DNA of 64,000 bases from an uncultured Phycisphaeraceae bacterium (GTDB lineage Bacteria > Planctomycetota > Phycisphaerae > Phycisphaerales > Phycisphaeraceae), in NCBI GenBank assembly GCA_964426135.1, contig CAYRPN010000018.1, forward strand, positions 65 through 64,064, in the 5' to 3' direction. Shown in pieces: positions 44,835-47,800 of this stretch. Below the pieces are notes generated by a model. That model ran no database searches and had not been told where the DNA came from. It saw nothing but the letters and a program-made list of their open reading frames with translations. Made by a program: the position numbers and the translations under genes. Within the stretch, counting starts at the first letter, position 1; each line of letters starts with the position of its first letter.

Positions 44835-47800
44835 TCATTCCCCCGCCGCCACTGTCTTGCCGTCGGGCTTGGGCGGAGGCGGCGGCGTGAGCAACTGCAT
44901 GGGCGGCAGCGTGCCGATGTGGTAGTTGTGGCACTTGAGGCAACTGTCGCCGGCGAGCTGCGGCTTGTGACAGGTGATGCAGGTTTCCTTGTTCACCGCG
45001 GTGAAGCCCGCAAGCTCAGCCGGGAAATCAAACGGATCGAGCGAGGCGAACTTGGCCTTCAGGTCGGTCTTGGCGGGCTTGTGGCAGACCTGGCAGTTCT
45101 TCAGTTCGGGCAGGCTCAGGTGGGGCCGGTGCGAGAACTTGACGAACGGACGCTCCTGAATCTCCGGCCGCTTGGCCTGCCAGTTGATGAGCAGACCGCT
45201 GGCGACGGAAGGCGCGGCGGCCTCCGCGTCGGGCGCTTTGGCGGCGGCCTTGGCGGCGACGAGCGATTCGAGCTTGGCGGCGGTCTGCTCGATGCTGTGG
45301 CACTTGACGCAGCCGGCGGCGACGTCGGCGGTCATGCTGCTGAAGAACGCGCGGGCCGGCGAAATCGGCCCGGCATCCACCGGCGCTGGCGGCGTGGCCA
45401 GGGCGCTGGCGCTGAGCCAGGACTTGAGGAAGATGTTGCCGTGGCCCATCGCCCGGTAGCGCAGGCCGAAGCTCGACTCATCCAGGTACCAGCCGCCGGT
45501 GGCGACGCGCTCCTCAGGCGAAAGCGCGACTTCCTTCGCCGGCGGCGGCGCGGTCTTGGGCGTGGTGGCGGGCTTCTTGGTGTCGCCGTCATCTTCGAAC
45601 AGATCGCCGCCGGGCTTCTTGGGAGTGGCGGGCTTTTTCGGTTCGTCGTCGTCGAAGAGATCGCCGCCTTTCTTGGCGTCCTTCGCAGGCGCGGCCTTGT
45701 CCTTGGCGGGAGCGGGGGCGGGTTTCTTCGGTTCGTCGTCGAGGTCGAAGAGATCGCCGCCCTTCTTGGCGTCCTTCGCAGGCGCGGCCTTGTCCTTGGC
45801 GGGAGCGGGCGTGGCGGGTTTCTTCGGTTCGTCGTCGTTGAAGAGATCGTCGGCCTTCTTGGCCTGCAGGGCGAGACGGTCGGCGGGCTCGTCGTTCGTC
45901 CAGACGCCTGCGGCGTTTCCGCTAACCGGCTTGACCGGCGATGCAGGCTTGTCCGCGAAGACGCCTGCGGCGTTTCCGCTAAACGGCTTGACCGGCGACG
46001 CAGGCTTGTCCGTGAAGACGCCTGCGGCGTTTCCGCTAAGCGCGGCGCTGACCTTGGCGGACGAGGCATGGAACTGTCCGACCCAGGCGCGAATCGCGCC
46101 GCGCGGCGAAGCGCCGGCCACGGTGGTGCGCACCTCGTCATCGGCTTCGTCGCGATCCGGGCGTTCGTGGCGCCAGCCGCCGCGGCGGTTGTCCGTTTCG
46201 TCGAGCGGCTCGTACTTGATCTTGCCGAACTCCAGGTCCGACTTCTTGTTCATCAAGTCCCGCACGCGAATGACGGCGATGTGCTCGATGGTGGCCCGCC
46301 ATTGTCCGCTGACGGCGACGGTGACGCGCGACTTGACGCCGGTGCGGATTTCCGCGTCGCCCGGCAGTTCATCGCCGGCCCGCGCCACCTGCCAGGGGCG
46401 AGTCGCGCCGCCGACACGGACCTGTACCAGGCCGCGCACCGCCACGACACGCGCCACCGCCAGCGGCGGCGCCGGATCTTTGGCGACATCCAGAATCTCC
46501 GACGAAGGCTTGGGCGTCACCGGTGTCGGTGTCGGCGTGGGCGTCGGCGTGGGAGTAGGTGTCGGAGTCGGCGTCGGCGTGGGAGTTGGTGTCGGGGTAG
46601 GCGTCGGCGTCGGGGTTGGCGTGGGAGTGGGTGTTGGGGTCGGGGTCGGGGTCGGGGTCGGGGTCGGAGTCGGAGTGGGCGTGGGCGTCGGCGGCTTGGG
46701 CTTGACGGGGTCAGGCAACGTCGGGATCACCGGGTCGGGCGTCACCGGATCGATCGGCGACGGCAGCTTGGTGGTTGGGTCAGGCCGGGTCGGATCGGGC
46801 CGGGGCTTGGTGGCGGTGGGGTCGCCGGTCGTCGGCGTGGTCGTGGGCCGCGCCGGGTCGGAGGTCGTGGGCGAGGGCGGCACCACGGGCTTCGATTCAG
46901 GAATCAACGAAGGCAGCGGCGCCTTGGGCAGATGAAGCTTGTCGTCGACCAGGTCTTCGCTCAGGTCGGCTGATCCCAGCGGCACGCGCGAGCTGGGCAC
47001 CAGTTCCGCCCGCGGCGTGACGGTCGGGCCCACGGCCAGCACCTGGGGCGCGGCCGTGGTCTTGATCGCACTGGGCTTGGCGTCGTCGAACAGGTCGTCG
47101 TTCTTGGGCTTGGGCTTGGGCGGCGTGGGCTTGGGCGGTTCGTCGTCGCCGAAGAGATCATCCGCCGGCTTGGGTTTGGGCGGCGTGGGCGTGGCGGGAT
47201 CGGGGGTCGGCGGCGTCGGCGGCGCGACGCGGATCGGACGGTCGGGGATGTCCTGCATTCGCCCCGCCCGATAGAGCGGAATCGTGTCCAGAAGATCGGG
47301 GAACCACTGCGATCGCGCCGACACGATCACATCCACCGGGAACTGCGCGGAAAGCTCCGCCAGTTCGGCGTCGCTGATCTTGCGGCCCAGCGCGTTGCCG
47401 AGGCGCTGCCGCAGCGCTTCTTGCCCCTTGAGCGACAAATCGTGGACCAGTTCCTTCACCGCCCAGCCGATTTTCACCACCGCCTGCTTCTGTTCCTTGG
47501 TCGCCTTGGTCAGGTCGTTGAGCTTGAAGTTGGCGGGCAGGCTTGCGATGGCGGCGGCGGCGGCGGGGTCGCTGGAGAGAATCAGGCTCATGAACGGCGA
47601 GAGCTTGCCGTCGATGTCGTAATCGGCGCCGCGGGGCCAGGAGCCGATCCAATCACCGCCGTCGGCCGCGAACTCTTTGAGCAGATCCATGTCCAGGCCC
47701 GGCAGATGGAAGACGAGCAGGCCCTTGCCGCCGGACTGCATCGCCTGCCCGTGGCAACTGGCGCAGGATTCCTCGAAGGGCCTGGTGGCCATGTGGCGTT

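Follow-up and report, generated by a model that had tools for sequence, protein, structure and literature searches.

A short palindromic DNA unit of the repetitive extragenic palindrome (REP) type, here called REP-G, probably entered the coding sequence (CDS) of a decahaem cytochrome gene in frame, drawn from a dispersed REP-type donor family, and its core was then tandemly amplified there. The gene lies in a 64-kb stretch of contig CAYRPN010000018.1 from an uncultured Phycisphaeraceae bacterium; this whole stretch is referred to below as the window. The cytochrome gene occupies positions 44835..48788 on the minus strand and encodes a protein of 1317 amino acids (aa) with 10 CxxCH motifs, Pfam matches and a syntenic orthologue. 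The same unit forms an intergenic doublet (7553..7729, no strand assigned) of 33-bp perfect arms around a 111-nt spacer, between the stop codon of rph (7748-8455, minus strand) and the start of a WD40/PSCyt1 gene (4099-7416, minus strand). Read head-first, the left arm (7553..7585) lies on the plus strand and the right arm (7697..7729) on the minus strand.

The arms of this inverted repeat and the cytochrome gene share sequence without a mismatch. The 32-mer TCGTCCAGACGCCTGCGGCGTTTCCGCTAACC is found exactly at 7697-7728 (+), 7554-7585 (-) and 45896-45927 (+) and at no other site in the whole window, and none of 100 dinucleotide shuffles matched it. Its 23-nt core GACGCCTGCGGCGTTTCCGCTAA has five exact sites in the window (7556 on the minus strand, 7704, 45903, 45960 and 46017), where chance predicts none. 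By short-word BLAST, the right arm (7697-7730) equals 45896-45929 over 34 nt, and the left arm (7553-7586) is the exact reverse complement of 45895-45928, again over 34 nt. The original prediction had described a 32/32 identity between the spacer arm and the CDS, two extra cores at 45960 and 46017 with 57-nt spacing, SGNAAGV peptides encoded by the CDS copies, and the location of the pair in the WD40/rph spacer. All of these factual statements are borne out: the identity is exact and slightly longer than described, the cores sit at the two positions given, translation places SGNAAGV at aa 930, 949 and 968 of the 1317-aa cytochrome, and the gene calls agree on the spacer.

The three CDS copies differ in completeness. 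Only copy C (45895..45929, minus strand) retains the head, hairpin and tail of REP-G; it contains the exact 32-mer and agrees with the family consensus end to end. On the coding strand it reads, head-first, CCGGTTAGCGGAAACGCCGCAGGCGTCTGGACGAA and translates to 12 residues (aa ~966-978). The other two copies retain 24 nt, each on the minus strand. Copy B (45959..45982) is identical to both arms over this length, encodes the SGNAAGV that starts at aa 949, and has the consensus head CCGTTTAGC with TTCGCGGAC in place of the REP tail. Copy A (46016..46039), likewise exact over 24 nt, encodes the SGNAAGV at aa 930 and has the head GCTTAGC; compared with the left arm, it matches over 29 nt with one mismatch. 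Together they make up a tandem array of a 57-nt (19-codon) unit on the minus strand at 45902..46039, recovered by Tandem Repeats Finder (TRF) as 2.4 copies with 96% match and no indels, and also by a repeat search. Each 57-nt unit consists of the REP core followed by 34 nt coding for (F) and 11 residues. The three cores, spaced 57 nt apart, are identical, while the 34-nt spacers between them vary at three positions. An inverted REP partner within the CDS was sought because it would point to insertion of a whole doublet, and none was found at up to 7 mismatches or by short-word BLAST.

The array lies in the linker of the cytochrome. The protein's N-terminal region has a Cys-rich segment, a transmembrane (TM) segment and a hexahaem part, and a long linker of low complexity connects this region to a C-terminal tetrahaem (cytochrome c7-like) domain; Pfam finds cytochrome c7, c3 and MtrC-like domains at both ends. 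A single open frame runs through the gene, from the hexahaem part upstream of the insert to the tetrahaem part downstream of it, as in homologues that are single polypeptides. The insert is in the low-complexity linker, between a FecR-like inserted domain and acidic DLF repeats. The latter belong to a 93-nt tandem array of 2.6 copies (45621..45863, minus strand) that adjoins the REP array and codes for acidic 15-residue repeats, whose DLF/DDLL motif corresponds to a feature conserved in the linkers of homologues. The same linker holds a (PT)n run with a 6-nt unit in ~29 copies (46521..46693, minus strand). With 57-nt, 93-nt and 6-nt arrays, the linker is duplication-prone. The FecR-like domain is beta-rich and spans 46160-46475 on the minus strand (aa ~772-877). 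It has no Pfam match in the window protein, and the related P0134 matches PF04773 weakly (E = 0.0023); the domain occurs in a minority of the family (P0130, P0131 and P0141), with P0010 lacking it.

These surroundings also bear on whether the REP unit is truly in the gene. A contig that is chimeric or collapsed at the repeat could place it there falsely, since this is a metagenome assembly and a Logan contig (k=31) breaks inside the left REP arm. However, the identical 1317-aa protein is found on three assembled contigs. Both flanks of the array align to the linker of relatives (the FecR-like domain on the upstream side, the AQAKK-DLFN boundary on the downstream side), the surrounding gene order agrees with the orthologous locus, and typical final k-mers are long compared with a repeat of 34 nt. 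An assembly artefact is thus extremely improbable. The Logan contig in question (L094, from another run) stops exactly inside the left arm, at about window position 7579; such an end is expected because an inverted repeat of at least 31 nt breaks the assembly graph.

REP-G is a dispersed repeat family of the REP type, as judged from its sequence distribution. When JGI metagenome contigs were scanned with the 21-mer coding for SGNAAGV, eight contigs matched. Seven of these (L082-L088) continue the match through a REP-G unit of 28-32 nt, beyond which the flanks are unrelated. The consensus drawn from the metagenome contigs is ACGTCCAGACGCCTGCGGCGTTTCCGCTAAAC, and the family can be written as the degenerate pattern G[TG]TTAGCGGAAACGCCG[CA]AGGCGTC. 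Four of the seven contigs (L082, L084, L085 and L088) hold a second, inverted copy with the heads outward, as in the window. These pairs have total lengths of 112, 107, 110 and 410 nt, and their spacers measure 51-56 nt in L082, L084 and L088 and 354 nt in L085. Single units are also common (L083, L086 and L087). The spacers of the four doublets do not align beyond the arms, and the copies may come from different species.

The settings of these copies are varied. One begins 3 nt past a stop codon and ~45 nt ahead of the next start codon (L087); those in L086, L084 and L082 lie upstream of, respectively, a PurQ-like gene, the conserved start of a PtsN-like gene and a nuo operon. The copy in L085 lies within a possible N-terminal extension of a MurJ-like open reading frame (ORF), upstream of the conserved N-terminal region. 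The original prediction had proposed a genome-wide tally of coding and intergenic copies. The copies counted here are those of the seven metagenome contigs, none of which is demonstrably coding, and those of the source contig, with one doublet and two intragenic sites. Among the matches listed, a scan of GTDB genomes with the 18-mer GCCTGCGGCGTTTCCGCT, which is too short for the purpose, gave 79 single chance matches, none of which extends to the 23-mer or to the consensus flanks. Two other repeat classes were considered and rejected. The GTTT...GAAAC look recalls a CRISPR repeat, but the copies are single or in inverted pairs and never in regular direct arrays. A miniature inverted-repeat transposable element is rejected on the unrelated inner sequences, the lack of flanking direct repeats or target-site duplications, and the frequency of single units.

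The anatomy of the unit is conserved. It consists of an unpaired head G(T/G)TTAGC, the bases GGAA, a stem of 5 bp closed by a loop of 3 nt (ACGCC-GCA-GGCGT) and the tail TCTGGACG. Across 19 aligned copies, all 95 cells of the stem ACGCC/GGCGT are paired, and the loop is GCA or GAA. Two compensatory double changes, from A-T to G-C and from G-C to A-T, are seen in a single diverged copy, the right arm of L084, and another copy has one G-U pair in the stem. Column shuffling equalled the observed pairing in 2 of 500 trials. An alternative stem, GCGG/CCGC, was rejected, with no covariation and 4 broken cells.

The head recurs well beyond REP-G. The window has 13 GTTTAGC sites, and 12 of them directly precede GC-rich hairpins with differing stems, one of them 24 nt beyond the cytochrome stop codon; the four CGTTAGC sites between 16592 and 19400 are followed by GC-rich hairpins as well. 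Altogether, about 20 other repeats in the window share the design of a head and a GC-rich hairpin, and most of them form head-outward pairs, such as those at 13710/13914, 16592/16744, 19257/19400, 29742/29874 and 31522/31598. Further sites of this kind are at 14473, 17946/18005, 21120, 30866 and 44811. Because the head precedes so many window hairpins with other stems, REP-G is best placed as one family of a head-plus-hairpin class. At the syntenic locus of a relative (L089), a 150-aa Y1_Tnp gene resembling IS200 or REP-associated tyrosine transposases (RAYTs) matches Pfam at E = 5e-22 and occupies, with its flanks, positions 3500-4203. The flanks are 47-nt inverted repeats made of GTAG and a hairpin, a REP different from REP-G. 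Judged by sequence, this gene and its flanks look like a REP/RAYT system in the relative, and since the flanks are GTAG hairpins, systems of this type would exist in the clade. A similar GTAG-type doublet is present at 17136-17330 of the same contig.

The intergenic doublet in the window is predicted to fold with very high stability as RNA (-114 kcal/mol, z = -8.1), which raises a role at the RNA level. The arm in the rph 3' untranslated region (UTR) or WD40 5' UTR would form a perfect antisense match of 33-34 nt with three sites of the cytochrome mRNA and would couple expression or stability of these genes. All three genes are on the minus strand, and a transcript of the spacer would hold one sense and one antisense arm. 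However, the antisense arm would be sequestered in the 33-bp perfect stem of the doublet itself. In other contigs the unit adjoins many unrelated genes, and no evidence is specific to this gene pair. Additionally, an Rfam scan of the whole window returned one tRNA only, and a scan of the spacer found no motif for a sigma-70-like promoter or an intrinsic terminator. Such an RNA-level function is therefore very unlikely. A small protein gene at ORF 7522-7809 (95 aa), which covers the left arm, was also considered and rejected, as it has no Pfam match; the similar peptide that it reads is a trivial consequence of the shared DNA.

The direction of transfer is indicated by the cytochrome homologues. 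The family is large and typically 650-900 aa in length, with a Cys-rich N-terminus, a TM segment, six haems, a helical middle, a low-complexity DDLF/DDLL linker and four C-terminal haems. Homologues were searched with an N-terminal query; with the low-complexity C-terminal half as the query, the search was swamped by candidates. The best homologue, P0010 (813 aa), is 57% identical over the N-terminal 514 aa. Its locus (L089) has the gene order of the window: a cytochrome, a ~520-aa protein, an FAD/NAD/Fer2 protein, a C554-like cytochrome, a cNMP/Fer4 protein, a 274-aa protein and then this gene. SGNAAGV is absent from P0010, and the P0010 locus holds no REP-G-like DNA at up to 7 mismatches. 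The peptide is likewise absent from P0001-P0009 and P0011-P0013. An exhaustive HMMER search with cytochrome residues 773-980 identified three family members with the FecR-like domain of the window linker (P0131, P0130 and P0141), of which P0131 also shares the downstream boundary (AQAKK-DLFN-DDE-KP) with the window protein. All three relatives lack the SGNAAGV segment. These comparisons support a peptide repeat that is private to this lineage and a DNA unit that is widespread and extragenic. Therefore, the direction would be from REP to CDS, and the family would not be derived from the gene.

The original prediction had left both directions open. The reverse course would make the cytochrome repeat the source, with SGNAAGV-coding fragments copied out to seed intergenic sites. 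The CDS copy does span 35 nt and each arm matches 34 of them, whereas the arms match each other over only 33, and the left arm resembles the CDS for 38 nt with one mismatch, reading 13 residues in its small ORF. However, that ORF has no Pfam match, and the unit occurs in seven other contigs and in a second gene, of the M56 family, with unrelated flanks and no trace of cytochrome sequence. The head-hairpin design is common to other families in the window with different stems, and no homologous cytochrome has SGNAAGV. An origin of the family in the cytochrome gene is thus largely refuted and highly improbable. Capture of REP-type DNA in an ORF with subsequent amplification, as first proposed, is supported by the dispersed unit, the shared design and the homologues without the peptide. 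That reading also stands up to the suggested alignment of cytochrome homologues, none of which carries SGNAAGV as an ancient shared repeat.

The M56 gene shows that REP-G occurs in frame in more than one protein. The source contig runs 11.8 kb past the window start, and 7.5 kb of this was retrieved (L092). A second REP-G unit with the loop variant GAA lies at L092 4457-4488, ~3 kb upstream of window position 1, inside an M56/BlaR1-like peptidase gene (L092 3042-4898, minus strand), where it reads SPDAFGVSAN. Its orientation is opposite to that of the cytochrome copies and its frame is not theirs, and it differs from the consensus at 2-3 positions. The unit occupies a loop of low complexity that separates TM2 from the HELAH domain, with TM1-2 upstream and HELAH downstream in one frame. 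Two homologues with 74-76% identity, P0151 and P0152 from samples ERZ27299533 and ERZ27257035, have SPNAFGVSAK and SPDAFGVSAK at the same position, encoded by nearly the same DNA with the same private GAA variant (L096 1964-1991 and L097 520-547, respectively). More distant M56 homologues lack the entire loop. Because P0151 and P0152 keep both the position and the GAA variant, the M56 copy is inherited rather than re-inserted, and by this sequence evidence it is older than the cytochrome capture. Extra synonymous constraint on the M56 copy was considered and rejected: six identical codons are unexceptional, as 74% of identical-residue codons are identical across the gene.

The perfect identity with the local doublet suggests, at the sequence level, that the event in the cytochrome was recent or that the copies have been homogenised. 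In its stronger form, homogenisation would dispense with an insertion altogether. A similar coding repeat that already existed would have been overwritten by gene conversion from REP-G, or the identity would be upheld by ongoing conversion. The perfect 34-nt identity among three copies in the same genome fits this course, as does the older M56 copy with its few differences, and the CDS cores are identical while the spacers between them vary. However, conversion requires prior similarity, which no homologue shows, and its result would still be REP-derived sequence within the CDS. Moreover, the private GAA loop of the M56 copy has not been homogenised to GCA in any of three lineages, which disfavours strong conversion. 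Conversion in place of insertion is distinctly unlikely.

In the course of events favoured here, one REP-G unit would have joined the cytochrome linker, head-first on the sense strand and in a stop-free frame, by RAYT-type transposition or by recombination. A 57-nt segment containing the REP core would then have been duplicated by slippage or unequal exchange to give the three SGNAAGV motifs. The linker is prone to slippage, given that the 93-nt and 6-nt arrays lie in it as well. As read from its sequence, the unit has no stop codon in four of its six frames, which partly explains why REP-G insertions would be tolerated. We infer the order of events, the translation and the insertion mechanism alike, and we infer neutrality as well: the intragenic array is most likely a tolerated, roughly neutral spacer and not an adapted module.

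Several points weigh against the insertion of a REP unit followed by amplification. The array contains three cores with two spacers, which a single insertion does not readily explain. Translation of the region at 45895-46045 follows solely from frame continuity between two conserved domains. The 76 kb available from the source genome hold one intergenic doublet and two intragenic REP-G sites, and by tblastn the 64-kb window contains no gene for a Y1 transposase or RAYT. As a REP, the unit is atypical in that its head is not the canonical GTAG or CGTC, the hairpin of a single unit is thermodynamically weak (z of -0.6 to -1.2), and the stem covariation comes from a single diverged copy. Finally, the closest orthologue of the cytochrome shares no more than 57% identity with it, which gives the insertion only a coarse date and no placement on a fine tree.

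The units in genes may also be more than passengers. As retained modules, they might be where a Y1 transposase acts or where recombination changes the length of the linker, or they might serve as a structured mRNA element affecting translation or decay or as a co-opted G/A-rich decapeptide. The M56 copy keeps its nucleotide sequence and hairpin across ~25% protein divergence, and the cytochrome has three identical cores. This possibility is unlikely; if true, REP-G would be a planctomycete analogue of the palindromic elements of Rickettsia, with a new (GTTTAGC) tag class.

Other repeats and mobile sequences accompany these loci. Arrays of 7-8 nt units (GAGGGACN, CTCCGTCT, CACCCTA and AATGTCG) are present in many intergenic spacers of the window, often as inverted arrays (8530-8650, 10732-11024, 15358-15620, 29876-29971, 30769-30848, 34642-34837 and 35738-35857). 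Similar arrays adjoin the REP-G copies in L083 and L086 and are also found in L089. A 193-aa fragment of an IS1595-family DDE transposase lies at 42530-43111 (minus strand), ~1.7 kb downstream of the cytochrome gene. Upstream of the cytochrome, the slot that separates the genes for the cNMP/Fer4 and 274-aa proteins carries different cargo in the two syntenic loci. The window slot (49661-50945, minus strand) holds a restriction-modification pair, an N6_N4 methylase and a PvuII-like endonuclease, whereas the slot in L089 (8658-9174) holds a bAvd/23S-rRNA-IVP gene with flanking inverted (AGAGGTC)n arrays.

In E. coli, bacterial interspersed mosaic elements contain REP units in inverted doublets. 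REP-G has the short palindromic unit and the inverted pairs of REPs, with an analogous tag in place of the canonical one. REPs normally have the tag GTAG or CGTC, which is used to classify them (Di Nocera et al., 2013; PMC3733652). Like REP-G, the GTAG/CGTC REPs are short palindromes that carry an unpaired tag at one end; they are mostly extragenic, often in pairs of opposite orientation, and some of them lie in ORFs. REP-G differs in its tag G(T/G)TTAGC, in its stem of only 5 bp, in the tandem amplification of the intragenic core inside a 57-nt coding unit and in having no transposase linked to it. The REPINs of REPIN-RAYT systems (Bertels and Rainey, 2011; PMC3116915) are likewise inverted doublets able to fold into a long hairpin, and a REP-flanked Y1 (IS200-like) transposase occurs in the syntenic relative L089. 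However, the doublet spacers of REP-G are unrelated in sequence and between 51 and 354 nt in length, hence the doublet does not resemble a single replicated unit.

REPs inside genes have precedents. Some REPs lie wholly within ORFs in several species and add amino acids to the product, with many intragenic cases in the PVC superphylum (O. terrae), and such inserts may be neutral, as their sites are flexible linkers or loops (Di Nocera et al., 2013; PMC3733652). The classic in-frame insertions in protein-coding genes are the Rickettsia palindromic elements (RPEs; Ogata et al., 2000; reviewed in PMC10969869). Like REP-G, RPEs are dispersed and palindromic, are in frame in functional genes and encode a peptide that is inherited in related species, as with the M56 copy. 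However, RPEs are ~100-150 bp long and usually encode a whole conserved peptide, whereas REP-G has ~32 nt (10 codons). Also unlike RPEs, REP-G is read in different frames and orientations in its two genes. The cytochrome copy has the features of an in-frame intragenic insertion, namely identity to extragenic copies, an open ORF with domains on both sides, and orthologues without the insert, the nearest of which has diverged as described above.

Since intragenic REPs and RPEs have already been described, the REP-G case fits that known phenomenon and is not a new mechanism; existing knowledge of REP biology and of cytochrome function is unchanged by it. Its value is as an example of how selfish palindromic DNA becomes protein sequence, in which the donor family and the recipient gene can be seen together with an empty-site orthologue and the later tandem amplification. 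It is also a warning for annotation, as repeats can be the origin of short 'motifs' in linkers of low complexity, in large redox proteins that are secreted or in membranes. Finally, intragenic REPs are now also documented for an uncultured planctomycete-like lineage and for a class of REPs with a GTTTAGC head, possibly a new tag class.

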